Shown here one piece after another: positions 23,158-61,728 of a stretch of 64,000 nucleotides of DNA (positions are counted from its first letter, which is position 1; each line of letters begins with the position of its first letter). Under the pieces are notes generated by a model. It made no database searches and was not told the DNA's origin. It was given only the letters and a program-made list of their open reading frames with translations. The translations under genes and the position numbers were made by a program. Source of the stretch: Pristiophorus japonicus. Its lineage: Eukaryota. The DNA lies in NCBI RefSeq assembly GCF_044704955.1, contig NC_091977.1, positions 304,916,001-304,980,000 on the forward strand. Reading direction: 5' to 3'.

Positions 23158-24588
23158 GGGCCCAAGTCTCCGGTTCTGGCGAAAACGGCGCACCTCCAAG
23201 ACTTACGTGACCTGCCTGGGCTCGAAAGTGCACCGGAATCATCTTCAGCAATTCTCCGGTCCTCCTGTAGCATGGCGTGATGCAGCGTAGTCTCCCTGGG
23301 GCAGAGCAAGCCGATCGCAGCCTGCAGGGGGCCGGGACTAGGGATCAGCCTTCTTGTCAGTGCCGGCAGCATTGCACAGGCGCGTTGGAGCATGCGCGCC
23401 TGCGCAATGGCTCGGGGGAGCGTTTCTACCGGGGTGGGGAGGGGGGTGGATTGTGGGTATCAGGATGGAGGGGGAGGGGGAGCGTGAGTACCGGGATGGG
23501 GAAGGGGGGGAGCGTGGGCACCAGGATGGAGGGGGGTCGTGGCAACAGGGATGGACGGGGAGCATATCAACAGGGATGGAGGGGGAGCATGGCAAGGGAT
23601 GGAGGAGCGTGGGTTGGGGGCACTCGAAATGATCAAAGGACCGGAGCAGAGAGCAGGGGTGCCTCCTTCCAGCCTCCCCCCCCCCCGCCTTCACACACAC
23701 ACACCCCCACGCACACATACCCTCCCACACCACCACACACACATCCCCTCCCACACCCCCACGCACACATCCCCTCCCACACCCCCACCCACACATCCCC
23801 TCCCACACCCCCACACACACAGCCCCCCCCACACACATACACCACCGCCTCCATCCCTTGCCATGCTCCCCCTCCATCTCTGTTGCCATGCTCCCCGTCC
23901 ATCCCTGTTGCCACGCTCCCCCTCACTGTCAGATACAGAGAGAGAGAGAGAGAGACACTAGAGAGAGACACACTGACAGAGACACCTTCCCTTCACATAA
24001 AGGTAGGACTTCTATTTTTTATTGATTGATTGCTTATTAGTTTGGTCTTGGTGTTTTAGGTGCAGGGTTCCTTCTATTTTTTATTAATTAATTGCTTATT
24101 ACTTTTTGTGCTTCATTTAGTGCTTGGTGCTTTAAATGTGCTGCTTTGTTTAGTGCTTAGTGCATTAAATGTACTTTGCTTCTTTAATGTTGTTGTGAAG
24201 GTGTTTATGGAAAATCCTCGAACTTCCCTTTCCCCCTCCCCCTGTTGTGATGTTGATGTGTGCTTTGTGTTTAATGCTTCCCACCCGCCGTCTCTGGCTG
24301 TGCCTGCACTAAACTTAACTCCAGGTAAAGTTTTTCAGAACTTACAAAAGTGGACACTTACTCCATTCTAAGTTAGTTTGTAGTAAGTTTTCACTGTCGA
24401 AACTTGCAAAACAGGCCTGAGTGGCTGGACACACTCCCTTTTGAAAAAAAAAATACCTTACCTAAAGCCAACCTAAACTAACTCACTAGAACTGGAGCAA
24501 ACTAATATCCGAGAATTGCAATTTCTAACATACTCCAAACTAAACTAGTTGCTCCAAAAAACTAGGAGTAGCTCCACCCGAAACTTAG
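23158..24588 (+). mobile_element. Non-autonomous Harbinger-like element (left arm of a palindrome)
   Basis: Begins GGGCCCAAGT and ends CCCGAAACTTAG; internal CA/CCC-rich low-complexity block. Confidence 0.7.
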
Positions 24589-24589
24589 A

Positions 24590-26269
24590 GGGCTGAAGTT
24601 TCGGGTGGCGTTGCTCCTAGTTTTTTGGAGCAACTATTTTAGTTTGGAGTATGTTAGAAATTGCAATTTTCGGACATTAGTTTGCTCCAGTTCTCGTGAG
24701 TTAGTTTAGGTTGGCTTTAGACGAGGTATTTTTTTTTCAAAAGCGGGTGTGTCCAGCCACTCAGGCCTGTTTTGCAAGTTTCGGCAGTGAAAACTTACTA
24801 CAAACTAACTTAGGATTGAGTAAATGTCCATTTTTGTAAGTTCTGAAAAACCTTACCTAGAGTTAAGTTTATTGCAGGCACAGCCAGAGACGGCGGGTGG
24901 GAAGCATTAAACACAAAGGACACATCAACATCACAACAGGGGGGGGTAAGGGAAGTTCGAGGATTTTCCATAAACACCTTCACAACAACATTAAAGAAGC
25001 AAAGTACATTTAAAGCACTAAGCACTAAACAAAGCAGCACATTTAAAGCACCAAGCACTAAATGAAGCACAAAAAGTAATAAGCAATTAATTAATAAAAA
25101 ATAGAAGGAACCCTGCACCTAAAGCACCAAGACCAAAGTAATAAGCAATCAATCAATAAAAAATAGAAATCCTACTTTTATGTGAAAGGACAGTGTCTCT
25201 GTCAGTGTCTCTCTCTCCGTGTATCTGACGGTGCGGGGCCGGGGGCGGTGCTGTGTGTTGTATGTGTGTGTGTGAGGTGGCGTGTGAGAGGGGGTGCGTG
25301 TGTGGGGTGGGGTGTGGGAGGGGGTGTGTGTGTGGAGTGGGGTGTGGGAGGGGGTATGTGTGTGGGGTGGGGTGTGGGAGGGGGTGTGTGTGTGTGGTGG
25401 TGTGTGGGAGGGGGTGTGTGTGTGGGAGTGGGTGTGTGAGTGGGGTGGGGTGTGGGAGTGGGGTGGGGTGTGGGAGGGGGTGTGTGGGTGGGGTGTGGGA
25501 GGGGGTGTGTGTGTGGAGTGGGGTGTGGGAGGGGGTGTGTGTGTGTGGGGTGGGGTGTGGGAGGGGGTGTGCGTGTGGGAGGGGGTGTGGGAGGGGGTGT
25601 GTGTGTGGAGTGGGGTGTGGAAGGGGGTGTGTGAGTGGGATGGGGTGTGGGAGGGGGTGTGTGTGGGGTGGGGTGTATGTGTGGGGTGGGTTGTGTGTGT
25701 GGGGTGGGGTGTGGGGGTTTTGTGGGGTGGGGTGTGGGGGTTTTGTGGGTGTGGTGGGGTGGGTGTCGGGGGGATGGTGGAAAGGAGGCACCCCTGCTCT
25801 CTCCTCCAGCCCTTCGATCATTTTGAGTGCCCCCGAACCCACGTTCCTCCATCCCTTGCCACGCTCCCCCTCCATCCCTTGCACGCTCCCCCTCCATCCC
25901 TTGCCACACTCCTCCCCCACCGATCACCTCCGCAGTGCCCACCTCCCACACTCCTCCATCCCTCCCCGGTATCCACACCATTCAAACACAGACTGGGGGA
26001 AAAATGCCCTGCCGAGCCATTGCGCAGGCGCGCATGCTCCAACACGCCTGTGCAATGCTGCCGGCACTGACGAGAAGGCTGATCCCTAGCCCCGTCCCCC
26101 CTGCAGGCTGCGATCGGCTTGCTCTGCCCCAGGGAAACTACGCTGCACCACGCCACGCTCCAGGAGGACTGGAGAATTGCTGCAGAATATTCTGCCGCAC
26201 CTTCGAGCCCAGGCAGGTCACGTAAGTCTCGGAGGTGCGCCGTTTTCGCCAGAACCAAAACTTGGGCCT
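24590..26269 (-). mobile_element. Inverted second copy of the same element (right arm)
   Basis: Reverse-complement match to 23158-24588 (the spurious ORFs 24060..24371 and 24810..25118 are near-identical); expanded GT/GGGG block at 25250-25770. Confidence 0.75.
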
Positions 26270-30266: not shown

Positions 30267-31071
30267 GGGCAGGATTTTCGGGTTTTGTGGTTTTTGGGCG
30301 AAAACGGTAGCGATACGTGAAAATTACCGTTTTCGCTGCGCTACCATTTTTAGGCCGAACTTTTGGCCTTTGGGGTCTGCACTAGGGCCGGTAAGGGAGG
30401 CGTTCCACGATTATTCGCGGCGCAGCACGCGTGTTTTGGCAACTTTAGTGCGGGGTCGTTTGTGCTGCGAGCGAGGCCTTGGGAGGGGGAGAAAAAAATT
30501 TAAAAATAAAAATTTTAACTTACCTTTTTTGCATGTTTTCGTACTTACCACTGCTGGCAGTGCTGTACTGACAGGTTTTACCACTGCTGGCAGTGCTGTA
30601 CTGACAGGTTTTACCACTGCTGGCAGTGCTGTACTGACAGGTTTTACCACTGCTGGCAGTGCTGTACTGACAGGTTTTACCACTGCTGGCAGTGCTGTAC
30701 TGACAGGTTTTACCACTGCTGGCATTGCTGTACTGACAGGTTTTACCACTGCTGGCAGTGCTGTACTGACAGGTTTTACCACTGCTGGCAGTGCTGTACT
30801 GACAGGTTTTACCACTGCTGGCAGTGCTGTACTGACATGTTTTACCTGTCGCTGTTCTGGGTGCAACGTACGGGTCAGGTGAGTGCCGAAACTCAGACGG
30901 TAACGCAATCCGCGTCGTTACACATCCGCTGCAGTTTTCCTCAACGGTACTTCTCATCGCCACCGCAAACAAGGAGCCGAGAATCCCACCCGGGCTTTGT
31001 GACCGGGTTTTTACCGTGGACAGTCAAAACGCGGTGAATATCCAGTCACAAAACTCTTGAAAATCCAGCCC
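30267..31071. mobile_element. MITE with Harbinger-type TIRs
   Basis: GGGCAGGATTTTC ... GAAAATCCAGCCC terminal inverted repeats. Confidence 0.7.
30547..30846. repeat. 33-bp minisatellite, 9 copies
   Basis: Unit ACCACTGCTGGCAGTGCTGTACTGACAGGTTTT; only two substitutions across the array. Confidence 0.97.
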
Positions 31072-45451: not shown

Positions 45452-46658
45452 TATATAATGTAGTTAGTAAGATATGATACAGTTACTAAGTTATGATATA
45501 GTTCCTAACATGATACTGATATATGATATAGTTATTAACATATGATATAGTTGTTATTAAACGAATAAGGAACAGACAATGCCGACTGGAGCGGACAAGG
45601 ATTTTATCTTTATGGAAAGCATTGTTTAGATGTGAGGACCTTGATCCAGGATCACGGGGCAAACAGCTATTTGTATGAAAATTCAGCAGAGATTTTTTTC
45701 TGCTGCTCTGGAGGAATAGTGTTGGTGATCACTTGTGTGAATGAAAGCAGCTGTCACTTAGTCTACTTAATAGGATATAATGGATTGGATGACACAACTG
45801 CATGAAAGTATTTGCAATATACAATTTGAGTACAGCTGACACCTTCACAACTATTATGTTCTCTGCAGAATTGGTTTCAAAATTAGCCCTCAAGCATTAA
45901 CTGGTGAGGAACTGTTTTCTTCGATAACTAAAATTGATACAGCAGCAATTATTAGCCTCCAAAAACATATTTAGGACCCACATGGTCTCTCTAATACTTT
46001 ATTTGCCCTGCTTTTCATGGCATAGAAACAAAATAGCTATCATTTAGTGCAATTAGGTACTTTCCAGCCTTCCTATATATATGTATCACCATTTTTAAGA
46101 TCCAATTTCAGCAGATCTTAATAGTGTGCACAATATATTTATGAAATTGGCCAGGAAAACTGCATGTTTATGATCAATATTTAATGCTTTCATTAGGCAG
46201 TAAGATATCCCTGCATAATGACTTCAACCAAAAACAATTGCCTAGAAATTTGGATGTTTAGTGCCACCCATTTCTGCCAAATTCGGCCAAAATAATGGCG
46301 GCTGCCCTCCGCCTGCCCACTGCTGGTGGGTCCCACTGCGGCTGCCAATTTTGAATGTCCGGCAGCGATGCCGATTGTCATGTATTCAACTGTCATTGTA
46401 ATCCATGTATAAACTGACCTCAGTTGTACACCATGAGAACACTGAACACTAGGTGGTGAACTTGTGGGAGACACTCCCAACCTGGACTTTCAGGTATAAA
46501 AGGGGAAGCTCCAACCACCTTCATCACTTCAGTGCTGGCAAATAAAGGTTACTGGTCACAGAGTGACCTTCTCTCTAGTATGGGTCTCATGTGCATTTAT
46601 ACTGTATAGTAAGGACATATTATTGGCGACGAGAAACTGGGATTTAAACCACGCGAGC

Positions 46659-48780
46659 ATGGCCACTAGCAGCACAGACGAGAGGTACTGTGTTGGTGAT
46701 GATTGGGACAATTTTATTGACAGACTACAGCAAAGTTTTGTCACTAAGGAATGGCTGGGACAGGATTCAGCTGACAAACGCAGGGCTCATCTCCTGACGG
46801 TTTGTGGATCCAGAACATATTCCCTGATGAAGGACCTTCTAGCGCCAGAGAAGCCGGCGGACAAGACTTTTGAAGAGCTCAGTAAGTTGATCGGGGAACA
46901 CTTTAAACCGGTGAGCAGCATGCACATGATGAGACACCGATTTTACACGCACCGGCGGCGAGAAGGGCAAAGACTTCGTGGCAGACCTCCGACGACTGGC
47001 GAGCTGATGTAAGTTCCCAGATGCATGCAGAGCGGAGATGCTGCGAGGCTTTTTTATTGAGGGCATCGGGCACGCTGGGGTTTTCAGGAAACTGATTGAG
47101 ACCAAAGACTTGACCCTGGAAACAGCGGCTTTGATGGCCCAAACATTTATCTCAGGGGAGGAAGAGACCAGAATGATGTTTGACAAAAATCTTGGTTTAA
47201 ATGCAGCAAATGGACAGGGAGTCAACATTGTTAATGCGGCACACAGTTCTCCAGGCAGACAGGGACAATTGGACATGCCCGAGCATGTAGTCGAACCTAA
47301 AGGGGGAATTCAACAGAGAAAATGGCTAGCTGAACGGCGATTCATGCCATCTCAAGGGACAATGCAGCCAGTAATGGGGCCATCAACCCTGTCAATGGTG
47401 CATTTAAGGACAGTTACAGAGATAGTCAGAGACAATCGACTGGTAATGGACCTTTTGTTTTCAACAACGGCTCATGTTGGAGTCGTGGATGCAAACACCC
47501 AGCCAGAGCTTGCAGGTATCAGCAATATACCTGCAGAAATTGCAACGTCAGCGGTCACTTGGCGCGTATGTGCAGGAAGCCTGCAGCCAGGTTGATGTAC
47601 GAGGAGGACGGGCCCGATGTAAGCCCTACGAGGCCAAATGGACACTGGGGGAAATCGCTGGAAGCTGAAGTTCAGCGAGTTCATGTGGAGCACATATACA
47701 GTTCATACACCAGGACGCCACCGATAATGATGAAAGTGCTCCTCAATGGCATCCCAGTATCAAGGGAGCTAGACACGGGGGCCAGCCAGTCCCTGATGAG
47801 TATCAAACAGTTTGACAAGTTGTGGGCGTCCAAGACCAGGAGGCCAAAATTATTGCCGATTGACACACAGCTACGGACATATACAAAGGAGATCATTCCG
47901 GTGCTAGGCAGCGCCACGGTAGTCATGATCCACAAAGATTCGGAGAACAGGTTGCCACTCTGGATTGTCCCGGGGGACGGTCCCGCACTGCTGGGGAGAA
48001 GTTGACTTCCTGTCATGAACTGGAAATGGGGCGATGTCAATGCAATTTCCTCTGTGGAGCGAGTATCATGCTCACAGATCCTGGACAAATTTGACTCACT
48101 ATTTCAACCCGGCATTGGAACTTTCATGGGGTCCAAGGTAGTGATTCACATAAACCCAGACGCCAGGCCAGTACACCACAAGGCCAGAGCGGTGCCGTAC
48201 GTGATGCGGGAAAATATAGAAGGTGAATTGGACCGCCTGCTGAGGGAAGGCATCATCTCGCCAGTCGAATTCAGTGACTGGGCGAGCCCGATTGTGCCGG
48301 TGCTCAAGGCGGATGGGTCGGTCAGGATATGTGGTGATTACAAGGCCACCATCAATCGGGTGTCACTCCAAGACCAGTACCCGCTACCGAGAGCGGAGGG
48401 CCTCTTTGCGACGCTATCCGATGGCAAACTTTTTTCAAAATTGGACCTGACCTCAGCTTACATGGCCCAGGAGCTGGTGAGTGAGTTGAAGAAGCTGACC
48501 ACCATCATGACACACAAGGGGTTGTTTGAGTACAATAGATGTCCGTTCGGGATTCGCTCGGCCGCCGCGATCTTCCAACGAAACATGGAAAGTCTCCTCA
48601 AGTCGATTCCAAGGACGGTGGTTTTTCAAGACGACATCCTCATCACGGGTTGCAATACTGAAGAACACCTCCACAAGCTGGAGGAGGTGCCTCACAGACT
48701 GGACCAGGTAGCTCTGCGACTGAAAAAAGCGAAGTGCGTCTTCCTAGCTCCAGAGGTAGAATTCCTGGGGATGAGGGTAG
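46659..48780 (+). pseudogene. Gypsy gag-pro-RT (5' part)
   Basis: Gag start MATSS, knuckle CRNCNVSGHLARMC, ELDTGAS, WASPIVPV, FQDD. Confidence 0.92.
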
Positions 48781-50200
48781 TGTAGGGGGTTTTTGTTCTG
48801 CCCAATTACGGGGACCTTTGGTGGCTGTTGGTGTATTGGGCCTCTCTGTCCCTTCTCGGGGACGGTCCAGCAGCTTATGGCTCGCTGACCACTAACCTGG
48901 CGGTTGCGAAGCACCCTGAAACCCCTATCTGGGTCCAAGCTCAGAATTTTGGTGGATTATGAGCTTCCACAAGGGAAAACAAAACACTCAGAGACAAGTG
49001 GTCCTTGGAACAAAAAAAACAGGCAAGTCCAATTTATTAACCACGGTAAGTTTCCAACAAGGTCAAACTTCATCAAAACACATATCAGACACATACTTAT
49101 AAACTATGAAAATCTATGGGAAGAAACGGACACAACGAAAACCTTACACAATTTTATCTTTACAAGACAGTTCTAACACCACCCCACCCCGCTTTTTACC
49201 TGACTGACCTAGGCTGACAGTTGGGAAAAGAAAACCCCAGGATAATACTTACGATCCCTTTTTGACAGTTATTCCTTTTAGCCTTAGGATGGTTGGTTTA
49301 CGGGGTAGCTGGAGTGAATGTTGCCTCTCCCAGTTACTTCGGTCCCCGGTTCTCCAGCTGGTTGGCTTCGGAACGTTGTTCAGTGTGCAGCTCGGCTTCT
49401 TGAGACAATGTTGGGTCTCTCAGTAGTTAGGTTGTATATTCTGCACATAAGTCGAGTCCAGGGCCCGTACGATGATATGTTTCACAGCCGGTAACAGTCT
49501 GTCTCCGTTCTCTCTCGGTTTCTGTCTTGTCTGTGACTGCTTCCTACTGCTCCAGCTACTTTCTCTATTTTCAAACTGGGCCGGGTCGTCCTCATTGGTT
49601 GAGGATTTCCCCGCTTCAGGCCCGACTCGACCCCTGATTGGCCTGCCAGAATGCACTTTTCCCCCATTGGCCAGTGCCTCTGTCTCGCTTGTGAGCCAGA
49701 CTCCACAATGTAATCAGAAGATGTCACAGGTAGGTGTGAGGACAGGAGTATTATTTCAGTGCATATTGGTGCCTCAACATCTGCTGGTCCATTGACTCCC
49801 AGGACTGTTACAATTACCGCAGTGATCTCAGGGCTATTGTCCACTGTCCATATTGATTAGGTAGATAATGGTCCACATTCATAAATTGATTAGGAGTGAG
49901 TCATATTTTCAAACTGGGCCGGGTAGTCCCCATTGGTTGAGGATTTCCCTGCTTCAGGCCCGACTCGACCCCTGATTGGCCTGCCAGAATGCACTTTTCC
50001 CCCATTGGCCAGTGCCTCTGTCTCACTTGTGAGCCAGACTCCACAATGTCTGTATCCGCCCACACGTTTCCCAGCCTGCCTGGTCTGAGGATTTTACTTG
50101 GCCAAAAATGTTCATTTAAAATGTATAGAATGATCCCATTTGGTTTTCTTGTCCTTAGGGTGTTCCAATAAAATGTGGCCGTGGATTTTCGAACCTTACA
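48781..50200 (-). repeat. 3' LTR of the provirus (1420 bp)
   Basis: Minus strand TGTAAGG...CCTACA; direct repeat of 58255-59661; minus-strand AATAAA at ~49033-49038. Confidence 0.97.
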
Positions 50201-50212
50201 CTCCCCCATCTT
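50201..50212 (-). promoter_or_regulatory. Polypurine tract
   Basis: AAGATGGGGGAG immediately precedes the 3' LTR on the minus strand. Confidence 0.85.
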
Positions 50213-50620
50213 GACACACCCGGATGTAGACGGAATGTGTCAAAAAGGTTTGCAAGAAAATCCTAGAGCTCCCCAAGTGACAGCCATCCCCATAATTGCT
50301 CTAAATTATAGACCCGCACAAACCAATGTGCACAAACAATATTTCTATCCATGCTCCTTTACAGGTAAACTACAAACAAGGTACCATTTTTGCTTTTAGT
50401 TACATAGAGTTAAGTACATAATTATAGCACATCATGTCGTGTGTTCCTTGCTTTCCTTGAAAGATTATTCCGCCATCACAGCATCTCGAACAGATGTATT
50501 TACACTGTACAAATGTATATCTGTGATAAGTAAGTCCGTATTGTGTTCTGTCATGGATAGTTTTAACAGCTTACGTGGTTGACAGTGCCAGTCAGTTTCC
50601 AGATACGAGTTTTCGTGGTG

Positions 50621-51921
50621 TTACGGTAAACCAGAACGTTCTCTTCTGTTTAAAACCACCTCGTTCTGTCCAGCCTGATCCGAGGCCAGCCGGTCCTCCT
50701 TGATCAAGGTGTTTATTGTCCGGGCGTGAGCCTCTAGCTGGGCAATAATTTCTTTCAGATGCACAGTCATAGCCACCCCCCTCGTGAAGCGTGGAACCCA
50801 ACACATTATTCTCTTTCCCTAGGATGCTGCGCAGCTGTGACTTCAACCCATTGATCTGCAGGGCCAGCTGCACATCATCCAGGCTGTTCATGACGGATGC
50901 CCCAGTGTTAAATCCGGTGAAAACGTCATTCATGACCCCCCTGCGTTGTCTGCCCCGCTCGGTTGTATCTTCTTGTCTATACAGGTCCGCCGCATTGACG
51001 TCCCCAAAGTCCAGCTCGTAGAAGCTCCTGAACATTTCCTTCAGTAGAGCTTGGTACAACTCGGTTTCTCTGGGGCAGAAGGCGGGTAGGCGAACTTCTG
51101 TCAGGTTTAGAATTACTGAAGCAACAGCATAATGTACTCCCTGGTACACTAACTTATCTGTCGGTACTAACACTAACCCATTCCCAGGTCCCCTAGTGGT
51201 GGGCGGACATCCATAACTGTCAATGGGCTTGGGCGTGGGCAGGGGTTTCTTCACCTGAGCCAGCAGCTCGGTGGCATTGACTAGTACCTGGAAACGAGGG
51301 AGCACACAGTCTTCCCTGCTGCGATCCCATTCTATCCCCTTCCCCGAGTCTTTCCACCATCTGGCAAAGGCAATGGACAAACCCACTGGGCACACCTGGG
51401 CCGACTCCCATCGGCATGTATAGATCCCCTGATCATAGGCCCACCATTTCTCCCAACACACCGTGACTGCACCCTCCCCACTCCCCCATGACCATCCGGT
51501 AAGTGTCATTGCTCAGACATTCCCAGCCTGAGCTGCTGTCCTCGATGTCCACGCTCAGTTTCCTGAGCCACCACCAGCGTCCCAAAGGTATGTCCCCAAC
51601 ACACGTTAAATACACTCTCCTTCCCTCTGTCACCCTAACCCGGGACGTGGCCATCTCGATTTCGGGGCAAGGGATGGAGGCCTCCCCTTCGGTAAAACTC
51701 TCGTGGCCCGAATACCGGGTGGAATTCGAACCCAACCACCCAGGCCATTTCCCCTTGCGGAATTAGGTGGCCTGGCCTTCTGCCTCCATGATCCCTTCTC
51801 CCGTGGTCACAATTGGCGCCCTACCCCCAGAGCAACCGTATGTCAAAGACATCTCGATGTCGAGTTTCTGTCCGGTGCAGGTCCCCAGGTAGGTAAATAA
51901 TATCGCGATGGTACGGAGCAT
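50621..51921 (-). pseudogene. env: env-like glycoprotein (signal peptide, Ig-like domain, F2-like region, furin site, fusion peptide, heptad), C-terminally truncated
   Basis: MLRTIAILFTYLGTCTG; one stop at 51763 and frameshifts at ~51485 and ~50780; RGRQRR/GVMNDVFTGFNTGASVMNSLD; candidate splice acceptor TCTTGTGTTCCAG just before the ATG. Confidence 0.8.
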
Positions 51922-52294
51922 CTTCTGGAACACAAGATTGAACACAGTTTTGCCTGAGACTTCTTCAGGCTCGACTGGAGTAACATCACAAAATAAAAAC
52001 ACCATCACCTCACTTTAAAATCCCCCTAAACTATATACAGAACACCGTGCTATATACAATGCCACCCGTCTCCAGGTGGCCAGGTCAGTCTCTGATACTG
52101 ACTTGGCTTTGTCGGCCATCTGGCTGACCTTGCCCCAGGAGCCGGACTGCCCCCTTTTGTAGGGCTTGCAGGAGGACTTCTTTTAAATGTCTTGCTTCCA
52201 TTTCTGTGAGCCCTTCGGAGTCTGGGATCTTTCCCGGGTCTTTCGGTGGTGTCCCTTTTACCGCACATAGTCTGCCACTCTTGTGCTTCTTTTC

Positions 52295-55200
52295 TCATTT
52301 GACTCTGGGACGGGCGGGAAGGTATACGGGAGAACAAGGCATCCTAGGCTGCCTCACTCTGGAACTACGCCTAACCAGGGACGCGGAGTCCCATGTTACG
52401 GGCTGCACCCCTTGGTCCTCCCACTGGTCTATCCCTTCCTCTATCTGCCCTGTCGTTATACTGCACAGGACTCCCTTCTCCTGTGCTAAGTCCCTTTCCT
52501 GCCTATCAGGCTGTGCCACTTCACTCTGCTGTGTGATGGTCCTACTGTGGCAGTGGACTATTCTGGGTTGTGGGGCTTCGGGGCCGGGGTTGACCTCTGC
52601 TACAGCCTCCATATCCACCGGAATGTCCTCTGCCTCCCGTGAGGTTTCGTTACCTGTGGGAGCCTTCCTTTTCCCTGCCCTAGTAGGGTTGAACCGCTTG
52701 CATTGGTTTATGTGGTACCACTTTACCTGACGGGGTAATTGGACCGCATAAACCATAGGGCTTGCCTTGTCCACTATACTGTAGGGCCCCATGTACAGTG
52801 GCTCGAACACCCCCACCCTGGCAAAGCTGCATACCATGACCTGGTCGCCTATTTCCCAATCGTGGTGGCTACGGGGTTCCAGCAGCAGCTTGTTACTAAA
52901 GTGCTGTCTTCCCATGTTGGTGGCTGCCTGCCAGTGAATCTGCTGCAGCTGTTCCAGCAGATTCCTAGCAAAGCGGTCTGGGTTAGCTTCCTGAAGCTGT
53001 CCTTCGGTGAGACCCGGCACCGATGTGTGTACTGGGGTCCTCATAGGTCTCCCAATCATCAGCTCATGGGGTGAATACCCTGTGCTTTTCGACTGACTGG
53101 CCAGGATCCCCATAAGGACCAGTGGCAAGACCTCCACCCATCTGTTGGGTGAATCCCCTGTCTCCTTGCGGAGCCTTTCCTTGATGGTGCAGTTGAGACG
53201 CTCTACAGGGCCTGAGGACTGGGGGTTGTACGCTACATGCCACCGTGCTTTAATCCCCAGTACCTTTAAGGTGGCCTGCATCACCTGGCTGGTGAAGTGG
53301 CTTCCCTGGTCGGACTCCACAAACTGCGGCAGACCCCACCTTGAGAACACTTCCCTGACCAGGATCTTGGGCGTCCCCAATGCAGTAGCTGTTCGGCAAG
53401 GGAAGGCTTCCACCCATTTGGAGAATACATCTACCAGCACTAGACAGTACTTGTACCCCCCCCAGGGCGGTTGGTAGGGACCCTATGTAGTCAATTTGGA
53501 TCGACTACCATGGTCCCTCTACCCGCCTGATGTGTCCCATGGATGCCTTTCTTTTCTGGGGGTCTGGGTTGTCGGCTGCACACACCAAACAGGCTGCGCA
53601 GAAATCACGGACGTCGTTCCGGAGATCTGGCCACCATGCTGCCTGTTTCACCATCTGCCAGGTGGACTCTGGCCCGGGGTGTCCTGCACCTGGACCCTCA
53701 TGGGCCAGTTGTAGGAACTCCCGCTGGTGTTGTGCTGGAACCACCCACTTATCCCCTTTAAACAGCATCCCTTCCTTGACAGCTATATCTGCAGCACTGT
53801 ATGGGCTCTCTGCCTTTCCTCCACTTAGGATGGTTGCTACGGCAGCCTTGAGGGCGGGGTTCTGCGCCTGAACCATTCTCAGGTCCGGGGCCACTGCTAC
53901 CCCTGCGCTCCCTTGTTTCCCTGGCTTGCCTCTAGCTGCTATCACCCTGCCTTTCTCATACGGGTCCCAGAAGCGACCTGTCTTGGCTCCTTCTCTGGCC
54001 AGGAGGTCCGCCCACTGGTTACCCTCTGCCCTGGGCTCTGTCTTAGAATGTGCCTTAACCTTGTGGATGTAGACATCCCTATTGTTCCCGAGGGCTGCCA
54101 CTATCCTTACTAGCAGGGGTTTGGTTACCAGCGGCTTCCCATCTGCGGATGTGTACCCCCTGCGTGACCAAATGGTCAGATACTCTGTACATGAATTGCA
54201 AGTAAACATACTGTCCGAACAAATCGTGTACGGGGTGGGAATTCCTCGGGGTGTGTCACCACGTACATCACCACTGACGGTTCAGCCTGCTGGGCGCTCA
54301 GGGTGCTGGAAAGTTTAAGCGCCAAGGCTGTGCCTGCCTCGGCATAGCCATGGCGTTTAAAACTCCGCAACCCGTGAGTCTTGTATTCGCGGACACTGAA
54401 CTGGATCCATCGACGTAGATCTCGCGGCCTGTGGGATGTACCCCTGCCCGAAATCCAAAGTCGGTGTCCCAAACCCCTTCTACTGAGCATCTATGTGGCT
54501 CCCCTGCATATATGAGGTTAGCTGCGAGCCTGGGCTCGCAGAGGCCCCTGACCCTGATGGCCATTTGGGAGAGGAGGAGGGTCCAGCGAGTGATCCTGGC
54601 ACTGCTGACTGCTCCATCCTTTATTCTCCCTTCTAACATCTGGGTCGGGGTGTGATGGGTGAGGAGTGTGATAGGGGATACTCCTGTGAAAACCTGTGCT
54701 CTTTTCAAGTGGCTAACAGATGCCTTTCACAGTTGGAGTAACCCTTCTCCACCTCTGCAAGGACTCTAGAGGAGTACACCATCGGTCTCAGCTGTCCATG
54801 CCTTTCCTGTAAAAGCACTGCACTCAGACTGTCCCCGCTGGCTGCTACTTCTAAATAGAAATCCTTTCCCCCATCAATAGCCCTCAGTGCAGGTGCCTTC
54901 TGCAGGTTCTGTTTCAACTGAAGAAATGCAGCTTGGCAGCCTTGGTCCCACTCCCACTCGACCCCTTTGTGTAGGAGCCTGAGTAGAGGGGCTGCAGTTG
55001 CTGCATAGTCTCCTATGAAATCTCTGCAGTAGCCTGTGATCCCTAAAAAAGATCTGACTCCGGATACGGCGGTCGGTACCGGGAGTTCCTGCACGGCTTG
55101 CCTTCGGGCCTCATCTATATCTTAGACACAGGAATTTTACTTCCTTTAACCCTATCTGGGCCTTCTTGGGGTTGACCTTAAAACCTCCCTCCTTAAGTAC

Positions 55201-56300
55201 AGCCAACAGTTCTGCCAGCAGGGGACCATGCTCTTTAATGTTGTCAGTGAAAAGGAGCAGGTCATCCACATACTGCACCAACTGTTGTGGCTGGCTGAAG
55301 CTCTTCAAACAGTTCGCCATTCACTGGTGGAAGATGCTTGGACTGTTGTGAAATCCCTGAGGGAGATAGCTCCAAGTATATTGCTGTTCCTTAAAGGTGA
55401 AAGCAAACTTGTACTGGTCCTCTCTCCTCACAGGGATAGACCAGAAGCCATTTGAAATGTCTAGGACTGTGAAGGTGGTTGCAGACGCAGGGATTTCCCT
55501 GATCAGGTCTGCCACTGCTGCCACTGTAGGAGCACAGCCGGGATGTTTCTGTTGAGCACCCGGTAGTCCACGGTGGCCCTCCACGAGTTGTCCGGTTTTC
55601 TGACCGGCCACAGGGGAGAGTTCACGTGCGTGGCTATTGCTCTCAACACACCCTGCTCCACCAGTGAGCTCAGTGCCACTTCCAAGTCGGCTTCTGCCTC
55701 TCTTGGGAAGTTATACTGCTTCTGAGGTTGGGACATGGGATCCCCATCTATCCTGACCTCTACTCCGGTGACTCTCCCACAGTCGTGTTTGTGGGCGGCA
55801 AATGCTGCGAGACTGGCTCACACATAGGCCCTGTACTCTGCCGGGGTGTTCCTGACCAGAAGCTCTGAGTCATAACCCCCTTTTGGCTTCACAGTACACA
55901 GAGCCCCTTTGTCTTGTATTGTTTCTATAAGCATGACCTCATTGTTTGTACCTGGGTCCACTGTTCCCCATAAACAGTGATTTCGCAGATCCACCAGGAT
56001 CTGGTGGGCTATAATGAAGTCTGCCCCCAATATACCTTTGTTAGCCTGCTCCCAACTTATCAGGATGCACTTCCATTTGGTGGTCAGTGCTCCCAACCTA
56101 AGGGTCAATGGGATCGAAAAATACCCTGTTCTTTCATTCCCCGTGAAGCCGACTAGCTCGTAGGGCACACCGCTGGACAGGGGCGAGGAGGCCGGGTCCT
56201 CTGTGTGGACAAGGGTGCTTGAAGCCCCCGTGTCCAACAAGTAAGTTCCCTGGTTCCCCTCCACCTCCATTTTTACCCACGGTCTTCCCCACGAGTCATA
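52295..56300 (-). pseudogene. pol: pol: protease, RT, degenerate RNase H tether, RNase H, integrase
   Basis: YLLDTGAS; NSPLWPVRKPD, LPQGFHNSP, QYVDDLL; YLEVAAS...YSNCERHL; IYVDGS...KVKAH...GNQWAD; HHCC, SDQGSHF, PQSSGPVER, GPY. Confidence 0.93.
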
Positions 56301-58251
56301 GTCCAGCGGACACAGGTAGGCAGGCTTGATGGGTGCTAGTAATGGTTCCTGCCGTATGGGAGCTGTGGGGATCTCTCTACCCACTGCTACATTGATACGG
56401 CCGGGACCTGTCAGCAGCTGCCTGAGGGTTTCTACAATGGTTTCAAACACTGTTGTGGCACCCGCTTTCTCATTACCCGGTTTCACCTCTGTGGGTGTTT
56501 TTACTTCTTTCACGCGGTAGGGATTGGCCCTGCAGTTGTTGCGTTAGTGGCCAGGCTTACCGCATCCATAACACATCCCCCTTCTATCGGGAGGATGTCC
56601 ACCCTCCTGATGCCACTCTCTCTTGGGGGTTTGGTTGGGTTACACCGCATGCACCCGGCCTTTTACTGTTTTCTCTGGCTTCCCCTCTTTCTCCCCATCC
56701 CCCGCCGTGTGGCAGCCAGTCTGCCTATCACGATGGCTTCGGTGAGATCGGGGTCTCCCGGGATGAACCAGAGATCTGCCCTTTCCTTGACACTGGGCAG
56801 GCTGTTTGCAATTATGGTGCGAAACCATGCTTCCCTTTGTTCCGCTGTAAGGTTGTTTCTGACAAGCAGGCCACCACATGCTGTGCTGTAGACCAGCCAT
56901 AACCTTTCCACGTATATCTGTGGGGCCTCCCCTGCTAACTGGCGTGTTTTCGCTATCCTTTCAAAGGGACTCCCTTCGTTCCACCAATGGCCTCTAGGAT
57001 AGCCCTTTGTAGTGCTGCGAGGGTGCTTTGTCCCCCGTGACAATCTGGGGGAAGAGCCTGGTAGATCTTCCCGTCAATGGAAAAAAGGAGCACTTTAACT
57101 GCTTCCGCGTTATCGCATGTGTTCATGTCCACTGCCTGCGCTATCTCCAGGAAGTGAGCATACGGATCTCCCAGTCTAGTGAGCTTTGGGATATGTGACA
57201 CCATGGCCTTGAATGCAGCAACTGAATGCGGAATGATAAACTCGCTGTCCAGCGGTCCTTGGGGTTGTGCACCTTGTGGAGGACCGTACTTCCTCTGTAC
57301 AGCCGAGCACATCGGTCCCGCAGCAGACACCACCACTGGCTCCCCCCTTTCCTCAGCCTCAACTGCCTCTGAATTTAAATCTGTGGACTAGACCCTTTCT
57401 GCGGGTGTCCCATACCCCTTTGGCTGGACCGGCTCTACCTGGCCGATCCCATGCCCTGTGGGTTTCTTGGGCTGCACCCTCTGATCCTCCGTAAGACCTG
57501 CCGGACACACTACCGGCGCCTCAGGAGGCGGTCGACTGTCCTCTGCCGCCGGATCCCCTTCCACTCCCCAATACCCTGACTCGTTGGCTGCCTCCCTGGG
57601 CCCCAACAGACAGACTGCCCCCTTTACCTGGGACAGAGCTTGGAGGAGGGATTGGATCCGCTTATGGCAGGGCGCATGATCTGCCTTCTCATGGCTTATT
57701 TCGGTGTTAACTTTATAGGCTGTGCGCAAATCCCTTAATTGGACCTGAAGCTCTTGGACCTGCTGGGCATAAGCTGTGCTCTGCTCCCTGTACTTCTGTT
57801 CTGTAGCCCGTGACACCGTAACCTGACTCTGCAGGTACTCCTGATGGTTGCGCAATGTTTCTTCTAACCGTGCCCTTCTATTCCTTTCCTCTATTAACTC
57901 TTCTGTGACCTTAGTACCCGCGGCCCCGCTGGTCGCTGAGGTTATAACGGCATCCTTTAATTCCTCCTGTAATTTCCCTATCTGGAGGTCTAACTCCCGA
58001 ACCTGCCAAGTTAAATATATCAGCCAAATTGCCTTTTCTACCTTTTTGTTATGTGTAGGCCCTTCTGTCCACTCGGCTGCCGCGTCCGCTGGACGTGTTA
58101 CCCTGGTCAGGTTCTGAACCCATGTTTTGGCAAAATTTACCTTGGAGAAAACATATTCCGTGATTCTCTCCTCCATTTTAGATTTTCCCAGCACCACCTT
58201 CTCTGAGGTTGTAAGCTCATTCTCCCACTGAGCTCCTACCTGGCTCGCCAT
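56300..58251 (-). pseudogene. gag: gag: N-terminal coiled coil, capsid-like region, single CCHC knuckle
   Basis: ORFs 57388..58251, 56953..57336 and 56663..57043; CYGCGKPGH*RNNC at 56532-56573, in frame with the protease. Confidence 0.82.
58233..58250 (-). promoter_or_regulatory. Primer-binding site, tRNA-Arg(ACG)-like
   Basis: TGGCGAGCCAGGTAGGAG, 4 nt from the 5' LTR; 16/18 match to the complement of the vertebrate tRNA-Arg(ACG) 3' end as recalled. Confidence 0.7.
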
Positions 58252-58254
58252 GAG

Positions 58255-59661
58255 TGTAGGGTTTTTTTTGCTCTGCCCAATTACGAAGGCCTTTGGTGGC
58301 TGTTGGTGTATTGGGCCTCTCTGTCCCTTCTAGGGGACGGTCCAGCAGCTTATGGCTTGCTGACCACTAACCTGGCGGTTGCGAAGCACCCTGGAATCTC
58401 TATCTGGATCCAAGCTCAGAATTTTGGTGGATTATGAGCTTCCACAAGGGAAAACAAAACACTCAGAGACAAGTGGTCCTTGGAACAAAAAAAATGGGTA
58501 AGCCCAATTTATTAACCACGGTAAGTTTCCAACAAGGTCAAACTTCATCAAAACACATATCAGACACACACTTATAAACTATGAAAATCTATGGGAAGAA
58601 ACGGACACAACGAAAACCTTACACAATTTTATCTTTACAAGACAGTTCTAACACCACCCCCACCCCCCTTTTTACCTGACTGACCTAGGCTGACAGTTGG
58701 GAAAAGAAAACCCCAGGATAATACTTACGATCCCTTTTTGGCAGTTATTCATTTTAGCCTTAGGATGGTTGGTTTACGGGGTAGCTGGAGTGAATGTTGC
58801 CTCTCCCAGTTACTTCGGTCCCCGGTTCTCCAGCTGGTTGGCTTCGGAGCGTTGTTCGGTGTGCAGCTCGGCTTCTTGAGACGATGTTGGGCCTCTCAGT
58901 AGTTAGGTTGTATATTCTGCACACAAATCGAGTCCAGGGCCCGTACGATGATATGTTTCACAGCCAGTAACAGTCTATCTCCGTTCTCTCTCGGTTTCTG
59001 TCTTGTCTGTGACTGCTTCCTACTGCTCCAGCTGCTTTCTCTACTATTTTCAAACTGGGCCGGGTAGTACTCCGCTTCAGGCCCGACTCGACCCCTGATT
59101 GGCCTGCCAGAATGTACTTTACCCACATTGGCCAGTGCCTCTGTCTCGCTTTTGAGCCAAACTCCACAATGTAATCAGAAGATGTCACAGGTAGGTGTGA
59201 GGACAGGAGTATCATTTCAGTGCATATTGGTGCCTCAACATCTGCTGGTCCATTGACTCCCGGGACTGTTACAATTACCGCAGTGATCTCAGGGCTATTG
59301 TCCACTGTCCATATTGATTAGGTAGATAATGGTCCACATTCATAAATTGATTAGGAGTGAGTCATATTTTCAAACTGGGCCGGGTAGTCCCCATTGGTTG
59401 AGGATTTCCCCGCTTCAGGCCCGACTCGACCCCTGATTGGCCTGTCAGGATGTACTTTTCCCCCATTGGCCAGTGCCTCTGTCTCGCTTGTGAGCCAGAC
59501 TCCACAATATCTGTATCCGCCCACATGTTTCCCAGCCTGCCTGGTCTGAGGATATTACTTGGCCAAAAATGTTCATTTAAAATGTATAGAATGATCCCAT
59601 TTGGTTTTCTTGTCCTTAGGGTGTTCCAATAATATGCGGCCATGGATTTTCGAACCTTACA
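58255..59661 (-). repeat. 5' LTR of the provirus (1407 bp)
   Basis: Direct repeat of 48781-50200 with scattered substitutions and small indels. Confidence 0.97.
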
Positions 59662-61728
59662 GTAGCAGCAGATGGGATCAGACCGACTGCGTCCAAAACG
59701 GAAGCGATCCAGAGAGCACCCAGACCTCGTAACACGATGAAGCTGCCTTCGTTCTTGGGGCTCCTGAACTATTTTGGTAACTTTCTTCCCAAATTGAGCA
59801 CGTTGTTAGAGCCGCTACACGTGCTTCTACACAAAGGTCATGAATGAGTCTGGGGGAAGAGCCAGGAAAGGGCTTTTGATAGAGCACGCAATTTGTTGTG
59901 CTCCAACAAAATGTTAACGCTATATGATCCATGTGAGAAACTTGTTTTAACGTGCGATGCGTCGTCCTATGGGATCGGATGTGTGTTGCAGCATGTTAAT
60001 GCCAAGGGTCAGTTACAGCCAGTAGCTTATGCCTCCAGAAGTCTGTCCCAGGCAGAAAGGGGCTATGGGATGGTAGAAAAAGAAGCGCTTGCATGTGTAT
60101 ATGCAGTAAGAAAAATGCACCAGTACCTGTTTGGCAGGAAATTTGAGCTGGAGACAGATCACAAACCCCTAACGTCCCTTTTGGCCGACAACAAGGCCAT
60201 AAAGGCAAATGCGTCAGCCCGCATACAGAGGTGGGCACTCACGTTAGCCGCCTATGACTATACAATTCGGCACAGACCGGGCACTGAAAACTGCGCCGAT
60301 GCACTCAGCAGGCTCCCACTCGCCACCACCGAGGGGGCAACCGAGCATGGTGCTGAGATGGTCATGGCTGTTGAAGCTTTCGTACACGAAGGCTCACCTG
60401 TGACAGCCCATCAGATCAAAGTCTGGACAAATAGAGACCCGCTACTGTCTTTAGTCAAGAAATGTGTCCTGAATGGGGACTGAGCAGCCACGTATGGGGC
60501 ATACCCTGAGGAATTTAAACCATTTCACAGACGCAAGGATGAACTCTCGATTCAGGCCGATTGCCTACTGTGGGGAAACCGAGAAGGCATTCCCCAGATG
60601 GGCAGAGAGGTGTTCATCCGAGAACTCCAAAATGAGCACCCGGGCATTGTCATGATGAAGGCAATTGCCAGGTCACACGTTTGGTGGTCAGGGATAGATG
60701 CAGACCTGGAATTTTGTGTTTGCAGGTGCAACACGTGTGCCCAGCTGGGCAATGCACCCAGGGAAGCCACCCGTAGCCCCTGGTCCTGGCCCGCCAAGCC
60801 ATGGTCACGCATCCATGTGGACTACGCAGGTCCTTTCATGGGAAAAATGTTTTTGGTTGTAGTAGACGCCTACTCCAAATGGATCGAGTGTGACATTCTC
60901 AATTCAAGCACATCCTCTGCCACAGTAGAAAGTCTACGGGCAATGTTCGCCACCCATGCTCTACCGGACGTCTTGGTCAGCGACAATGGCCCGTGCTTTA
61001 CAAGCATTGAGTTCCAGGACTTCACGACAGGAAGTGGTATCAACCATGTCAGAATGGCACCATTCAAGCCGGCCTCAAACGGCCAGGCGGAACGAGCAGT
61101 GCAGATAATCAAACAGGGAATGCTCAGAATCCAAGGGGGTTCCCTACAAAGCCGCTTATCATGCCTCCTGTTGGCCAATAGATCCCGACCACACTCGCTC
61201 ACAGGGGTTCCACCCGCAGAGCTGCTAATGAAAAGGACGCTCAAAATCAGGTTATCCCTTATACATCCCACCATGAAAGAAATTGTTGAGAGCAGGCGCC
61301 GGTCACAATGTGACTACCATGGCGGGAATGCGAGGGCGCGATGTATTGATGTCAATGACCCGGTCTTTGTCCTCAACTATGCTGCAGGGCCCAAATGGCT
61401 TACAGGCACTGTGATTGCCAAAGAGGGGAATAGGATTCTGGTAGTTAAACTTACCAATGGACAAATCTGCCGCAAACACGTGGATCAAACTAAAAGGAGG
61501 TTCAGCAACCCCATAGAAGAAGCAGAGGAAGAACACGATGTCGAGTTCACTCCACCACAGGTGACCGAACACCGGAACCAAAGGGAGGAGAGCCCAGTCA
61601 CTGTGGGCAGTCGGGACAGGCCTGAGGCACTGCAAACAGCAGACACTCAGGCCAGCGCCCAACAACCGGAGCCCCAAATCAGGCGCTCTACAAGGGAGCG
61701 TAAACCACCAGAGAGACTCAACCTGTGA
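59662..61728 (+). pseudogene. Gypsy RT end, RNase H and integrase (3' part)
   Basis: TCDASSYG, ETDHKPL, HPG...CNTC, HVDYAGP, SDNG, SNGQAER. Confidence 0.93.

Follow-up and report, generated by a model that had tools for sequence, protein, structure and literature searches.

The window, by which we mean the whole stretch of 64,000 nucleotides that was analysed, contains a minus-strand provirus at 48781-59661 in the genome of the cartilaginous fish Pristiophorus japonicus (sawshark). Its features are collected in Table 1. The provirus is nested within pol of a plus-strand Ty3/gypsy element, the flanks of which occupy window 46500-48780 and 59662-60483; two copies of a direct repeat of 247 bases, at 46376 and 61758, may represent the LTRs of that element. 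Within each of the 1.4 kb proviral LTRs, a stretch of ~146 bases recurs as a direct repeat at a distance of 338 bases (49566-50049 and 59027-59510), possibly an enhancer duplication. The gag ATG and the primer-binding site overlap (58233-58251) four bases from the 5' LTR, which leaves the leader almost absent, and gag may be translated from a cap site that lies far upstream within the LTR. LTR divergence corresponds to an age of ~80 million years at a rate of 2.2e-10, the shark rate assumed in the available text of PMC4422223, or ~18 million at 1e-9, the rate itself being uncertain. One contig of run X1 lacks 4546 bases between the start of gag and late pol (window 53647-58194), with non-canonical ends, and is possibly another deleted form. 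Elsewhere in the window, a large nested inverted repeat around 24590 (23172-26256) is accompanied by a tandem array rich in GC, and at 30479-30912 there is a 33-base tandem array.

Table 1. Features of the sawshark provirus, in window coordinates.
Feature	Position	Strand	Remarks
5' LTR	58255..59661	-	95% BLASTN match to the other LTR; K2P 0.036 over 1402 sites
3' LTR	48781..50200	-	preceded by a short polypurine tract, 50201-50210
Target-site duplication GTAG	48777..48780; second copy 59662-59665		4 bases
Primer-binding site, tRNA-Arg(ACG)	58233..58250	-	16/18 bases match the 3' end of host tRNA-Arg genes L068/L069; overlaps gag ATG
gag, broken	56560..58251	-	N-terminal part coiled-coil-like by eye
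pol, broken	52295..56543	-	protease, RT (LPQG, YVDD), RT_RNaseH/tether, second RNase H, integrase
Splice-acceptor-like pyrimidine tract and CAG	51925..51942	-	directly 5' of env ATG; read from sequence
Env signal-peptide-like leader (MLRTIAILF...)	51871..51921	-	by eye; moderate hydrophobicity
Pre-Ig segment, 63 residues	51682..51870	-	conserved, one conserved Cys; contains stop 51763-51765; omega 0.08-0.20 between families
Probable V-set Ig domain	51348..51681	-	B-strand Cys, C-strand Trp, DxGxYxC, four extra conserved Cys; frame change near 51485
Post-Ig segment	51192..51347	-	conserved Cys, N-glycan site, Pro/Thr-rich linker; least conserved, omega 0.30-0.43
F2-like subunit, GPGNGL to furin site RQRR	50940..51191	-	by-eye match to the PGPxxGI start of lokiretrovirus Env
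Fusion-peptide position and HR1	50660..50939	-	frame change near 50780
Deletion junction, ~1.1 kb lost	50659..50660	-	GAG/GT donor fused to CAG/G acceptor; F core, HR2 and TM gone

Gag matched no Pfam family at the cut-off. Its N-terminal portion (57388-58251) has a coiled-coil-rich look, like the SMC-like ORF of some lokiretroviruses, though pol appears SnRV-like. Pfam families found in pol were PF13975, PF00078, PF17919, PF00075, PF17921 and PF00665, with a dual RNase H arrangement (PF17919/PF17917 followed by PF00075). To our knowledge, a tether plus an added RNase H is common to all retroviruses. Natural RT frames of sibling proviruses carry LPQG; loki RTs carry CPFG or TPFG in the accessible portion of PMC7947760. 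A hand count on the printed alignment gave ~115/246 identities (~47%) to SnRV and ~84/246 (~34%) to Loki-Lca. A lokiretroviral identity for pol was dropped on account of this motif and of the closer hand count to SnRV. The best PDB RTs were MLV-type (E 7.5e-52), foamy (3e-44) and Ty3 (6e-34), and the closest named elements among 11 RT database matches were from coelacanth (44-53%). Coelacanth ERVs are mostly SnRV-like according to the available text of PMC4977317, and that of PMC4422223 describes an SnRV-like lineage in elephant shark. A search of viral_contigs returned no relative of the RT or of the N-terminal extension of Env. The RT tree, from which P0024 was excluded as having no YxDD motif, took in no SnRV, loki or other named reference rows and gave no information at its deep forks. 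We provisionally regard pol as snakehead-retrovirus-like, a placement made by motif and hand count.

The Ig motifs quoted from env in the earlier note are present, split over two frames of the minus strand. RVRVTEG (51642-51622), LTCVG (51609-51595) and WWWLRK (51576-51559) lie in one frame, and VTVCW (51467-51453), DQGIYTC (51434-51414) and RFQVLV (ending at 51279) in a second. Next come a Pro-rich linker (51251-51192), GPGNGLVL, the furin site RQRR (50951-50940) and a heptad region. We infer from its sequence that the pyrimidine tract before the env ATG would be used as a splice acceptor. The window env is broken four times: the two lesions already recorded, a stop (51763-51765) and one extra G (frame change near 51485), were both found, but a frame change near 50780 and the ~1.1 kb deletion at 50660/50659 had been missed. 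This copy is a dead relic without a membrane anchor.

A genome-wide DNA search of the 5.9 Gb genome returned 2664 candidates, and all 40 that were scored match at 88-100%. The earlier note had asked whether sibling proviruses might lack the segment or carry it out of frame with env. The DNA search covered the Ig segment in 19/19 best siblings at 92-95%, and in sibling L002 the leader, Ig segment, linker, F2, furin site and HR1 lie in a single natural frame, although L002 itself carries the env-deleted form. Both canonical Cys fall in one frame in three of the 19 siblings of this family (A). In a second family (B), the search returned 9031 candidates, and each of the 150 that were scored matched. 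Both Cys share a frame in 19 of the 25 family-B loci fetched, a share biased upward by the choice of loci by score, and three loci continue to the furin site. Between the families, the Ig core has a pN of 0.22-0.24 against a pS of 0.67-0.78; omega is 0.09-0.16 in four of eight between-family pairs, and dS is saturated in the other four. The Ig segment is under purifying selection, and its conservation is about that of F2 (65% vs 55-78%). The expectation of a single signal peptide-Ig-F reading frame under purifying selection is borne out for selection and, in L002, for the frame as far as HR1, but a whole unbroken env was seen at 0/20 loci of family A. What stands is a probable V-set domain that lies in frame at the N-terminus of an F-like fusogen, is found throughout the family and is constrained by purifying selection.

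When 1.84 billion representatives were searched with a profile, all 11 matches proved to be the viral segment. Named env homologues are all elasmobranch (the sawshark, the skate Rhinoraja longicauda and the whale shark), and the segment is present in three elasmobranch orders. Five Ig-segment matches with identical scores, four of them ~35 kb apart, lie at G000:C6:266592283-267296058; this cluster is a tandem segmental duplication carrying a copy. Two host gene models contain env pieces, fused in P0004 to a Niban-like gene at the env donor site and in P0008 to a zinc-finger gene; they may be exonisation or annotation artefacts.

The segment probably has a V-set Ig fold, with every score below its threshold. 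Neither the V-set nor the I-set profile of Pfam, both named for this purpose in the earlier note, matched at E<=1, but Ig_3 matched over profile positions 2-74 of 78 (73/78 covered; E 7e-4; 20.4 bits against a cut-off of 30). Ig_3 was matched at E<=1 in nine of 14 members and, in the window's own pieces, only at E 0.026; P0005 had no Pfam match. Nine of the ten best Atlas family matches fall in one Ig clan with scores of 0.87-0.89 (<0.9), the top match being an unnamed cluster. The two best matches in a PDB profile search were the CRTAM V domain (E 0.076 and 0.13); a PDB search with alignment A3, whose profile was swollen to 427 positions by long rows, found nothing. Single-sequence phmmer retrieved two antibody V domains and one unrelated three-finger protein (E 0.3-0.8).

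Canonical Ig spacing of the B-strand Cys, the C-strand Trp and D-x-G-x-Y-x-C is present. In L002 frame numbering, Cys138, Trp149, Gly196, Tyr198 and Cys200 are each retained by 30-32 of the 32 rows, and six Cys and the Trp by 29-32 of them; the D position of DxGxYxC is Asp in 6/32 rows and Glu in 23/32. In shuffles of the 226-residue L002 extension, a strict Ig pattern, composed after sight of the sequence, arose 0 times in 100,000, and the loose pattern C..W..DxGxYxC 110 times in 100,000. We take the extra Cys135 and Cys186 to correspond to positions 20 and 74 of a V-light domain, where they would be neighbours across strands B and E.

An untrimmed 208-residue model was poor (pLDDT 38.6), with tailspike noise in Foldseek, VIA Z<=5.5 and best matches that are not Ig. 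The trimmed 111-residue model has seven strands at pLDDT 62, strand G not being confidently modelled. With this model, 44 of 45 Foldseek rows were antibody, nanobody, VNAR or TCR V domains (probability 0.94-1.0; E 0.014-0.077; TM 0.41-0.54), two rows being classed by chain length only and the PDB being antibody-rich; shark VNARs made up 18 of the 45 rows, at 13-21% identity. VIA ranked a TCR chain first (Z 6.2, rmsd 3.7 over 89 residues); nothing reached Z 8, and a Z below 8 may mean only a common arrangement. In BFVD, unrelated phage beta-sandwiches reached an equal E of 0.014, and no retroviral or eukaryotic-virus Ig match occurred among the named rows. The structural check proposed in the earlier note points to V domains, but at that pLDDT, with no E below 0.014 and no Z above 6.2.

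In the natural frame of sibling L018, the part from furin site to TM scored 0.93-0.94 in Atlas against Gypsy, Baculo_F and Fusion_gly clusters (197-209 shared features), with a recognition of 1730, below the 2300 mark. No Pfam or PDB match to the F core was obtained. The order signal peptide, furin site, fusion peptide/HR1, HR2 and C-terminal TM was seen across natural frames of separate siblings. P0002 has no CX6CC by eye and no retroviral TM Pfam match and maps to the F clan (PF00523/PF12259), and on these grounds a gamma-type Env identity was rejected. The C-terminal part of env is probably an F-type core, to judge from these sub-threshold scores and a by-eye likeness to lokiretrovirus Env.

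Of the 20 loci, five are without the same env stretch (the window copy, L002, L007, L008 and L014), from a GAG/GT donor to a pyrimidine-rich CAG/G acceptor. The junction is spanned at 19 of 40 scored loci, hence at least 19 loci, and gene model P0004 exits env at the donor point. The contigs of run X1 have no joint at this env junction, which speaks neither for nor against splicing. The 20 env copies form a star tree in which the deleted copies are not one group (0% of bootstrap trees), although a single origin is not rejected (p-AU 0.27), and AGGT(G) microhomology occurs at both deletion ends. The deletion likely arose by reverse transcription of spliced RNA, with microhomology as the rival route, and the deleted loci are probably a non-enveloped or secreted-Env sublineage copied from such RNA. 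The putative spliced form would yield an anchor-less, Ig-bearing product ending 13 residues past HR1.

The reading that we favour, and consider rather probable, is that a degenerate V-set Ig domain within a ~225-residue N-terminal extension serves as the attachment head of an F-type Env (paramyxo/baculo/loki-like) in a multi-family shark and ray ERV lineage. Env would be read from a spliced mRNA, directed by its signal peptide, assembled as a trimer and cut by furin at RQRR. The N-terminal subunit, comprising Ig head, Pro-rich tether and F2, would remain on the F1 trimer. By binding a conserved protein of the cell surface, for which another IgSF member is a plausible candidate, the head would bring or trigger the F machine and stand in for the separate H/HN/G attachment protein of paramyxoviruses. 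A point against an exposed receptor-binding role is that the domain is conserved about like F2, which is unusual for such a domain. An ancient capture from a host IgSF gene would be the most likely source of the domain, with CRTAM/nectin-like proteins (E 0.076) and VNARs (18/45 Foldseek rows) as no more than weak donor leads. The search for the closest host IgSF gene that the earlier note had advised gave no host IgSF protein among the 11 profile matches in 1.84 billion representatives, and because the donor gene was not found, host capture and function are still matters that we infer.

Other explanations were weighed against attachment by this head. A genuine Ig domain could act mainly as an immune decoy or modulator, possibly secreted via a spliced, anchor-less env, by analogy with foamy Env-Bet or filovirus sGP. 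The deletion speaks for this by its GT donor and pyrimidine-rich AG acceptor, by its recurrence at 19/40 scored loci, by the exit of P0004 at the same point and by the scatter of deleted copies in the best tree. The microhomology at both ends would equally permit a template-switch deletion, however, a single origin was not rejected, and P0004 may be an ab initio model. We regard a mainly decoy role as rather unlikely, noting that attachment and decoy roles are not mutually exclusive. An Ig-like sandwich with a structural role, as cap, shield or folding aid for the F trimer and perhaps of viral derivation (e.g., a duplicated F domain II), would account for conservation as strong as that of F2 and for the missing host donor among the 11 profile matches, and F domain II itself has an Ig-superfamily fold in the available text of PMC11468914. 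It is nevertheless unlikely in view of the V-set hallmarks (B-F Cys pair, Trp, DxGxYxC) and the ranking with host V domains, of the Pro-rich tether between Ig and F2, as in gamma-type receptor-binding domains, and of the 22 published Loki Envs with a readable N-terminus, which have no Ig segment.

That the segment is not Ig at all, being another Cys/Trp-rich beta-sandwich that resembles the motifs by chance, would fit the sub-threshold scores, the BFVD non-Ig matches at equal E-values, the carbohydrate-enzyme and adhesin sandwiches matched by the first model (Z 5.0-5.5) and the P0005 result. Four methods nonetheless indicate the same clan, the motif spacing has a chance of at most about 0.1% in shuffles, and the extra Cys pair fits the B/E register, so that we consider this improbable. 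The broken state of the window copy might also suggest a host Ig exon or chance sequence put into this single provirus after integration. This is refuted, to the point of being next to impossible, by the segment in all 19 siblings and in a second family of at least 150 loci, by the skate and whale-shark records that carry it, and by purifying selection.

The earlier note knew of no described retroviral Env with this architecture, a statement that no longer holds for the layout. In the accessible text of bioRxiv 10.1101/2024.03.17.585361, MLV/FeLV-type Envs have an N-terminal IgV-like receptor-binding domain followed by a Pro-rich region, while the Env of an alpharetrovirus-like element contains a SIRP IgV domain taken from the host (Hotzel 2024). 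As far as that text reports, the gamma-type Envs (MLV, FeLV, HERV-Pb; RBD-C) and Env-Dbi/Env-Per share with the shark Env the order signal peptide, IgV-type domain, Pro-rich linker and fusion machinery, and Env-Dbi likewise has the canonical B-F disulfide plus an extra one. The shark Env differs from gamma-type Env in its F-type fusion machine, as opposed to gamma-type SU/TM, and in its elasmobranch host. SIRP is alignable to Env-Dbi in the same source, whereas a close host donor was not found for the shark Env.

F-like retroviral Envs are described in the available portions of PMC7947760 for lokiretroviruses and of PMC11468914 for foamy viruses. Lokiretrovirus Env (Wang and Han, PMC7947760, in the part available) shares the F-like character, a GP-x-x-G start, RXKR-type cleavage, heptad repeats and a TM; the pol tether with second RNase H and a coiled-coil-like 5' ORF are also shared. 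Within the same portion, the GP motif lies no more than ~10 residues past the signal peptide in 22 of the 23 published loki Envs, the other being without its N-terminus, whereas ~225 residues intervene here; 0/6 chondrichthyan genomes were positive in that screen, and Loki Pol has a long spacer where the shark protease lies directly before RT. SnRV and SnRV-like ERVs (clade Huo; CmiERV lineage I) share the RT blocks LDISNGFWSI and QQYTWxxLPQGFH, going by the accessible parts of PMC4422223 and PMC6001957. An F-type or Ig-bearing Env for the SnRV clade was not found in the openly accessible literature searched. The SnRV primer is also Arg. Foamy virus Env, in the available text of PMC11468914, likewise combines a paramyxo/pneumo-F-like core with a receptor-binding domain of its own; that domain is nested in Env and has a novel fold, whereas the shark module resembles a V-set domain and sits at the N-terminus, directly after a short signal peptide and the pre-Ig segment.

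A fuller account is possible, though we hold it only tentatively: an SnRV-clade shark and ray lineage may have combined a paramyxo-F-type Env with a captured host V-set domain (nectin/CADM-like or antigen-receptor-like), giving one-gene attachment plus fusion in parallel to the gamma-type RBDs, and also a secreted Ig decoy by splicing. If true, F-type Env would extend beyond lokiretroviruses and foamy viruses, which would bear on the question whether F-type Env is the ancestral type in retroviruses. An SnRV-like pol joined to an F-type env, if confirmed by a proper tree, would bear on the frequency of env swaps as well as on which Env type came first. The domain is compact, and the receptor of an extinct shark retrovirus would be testable by a simple binding screen. 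F-type fusogens usually pair with a separate attachment protein, as in paramyxoviruses, or with a nested domain of unique fold, as in foamy viruses. Attachment by a V-set head at the N-terminus, held on a Pro-rich tether, would be a further solution, and one at which gamma-type Envs arrived independently. The openly accessible literature searched showed no Ig head on an F-type Env. We conclude that the N-terminal IgV head with its Pro-rich region is already known from other retroviral Envs, and that what is new is its pairing with an F-type fusogen.
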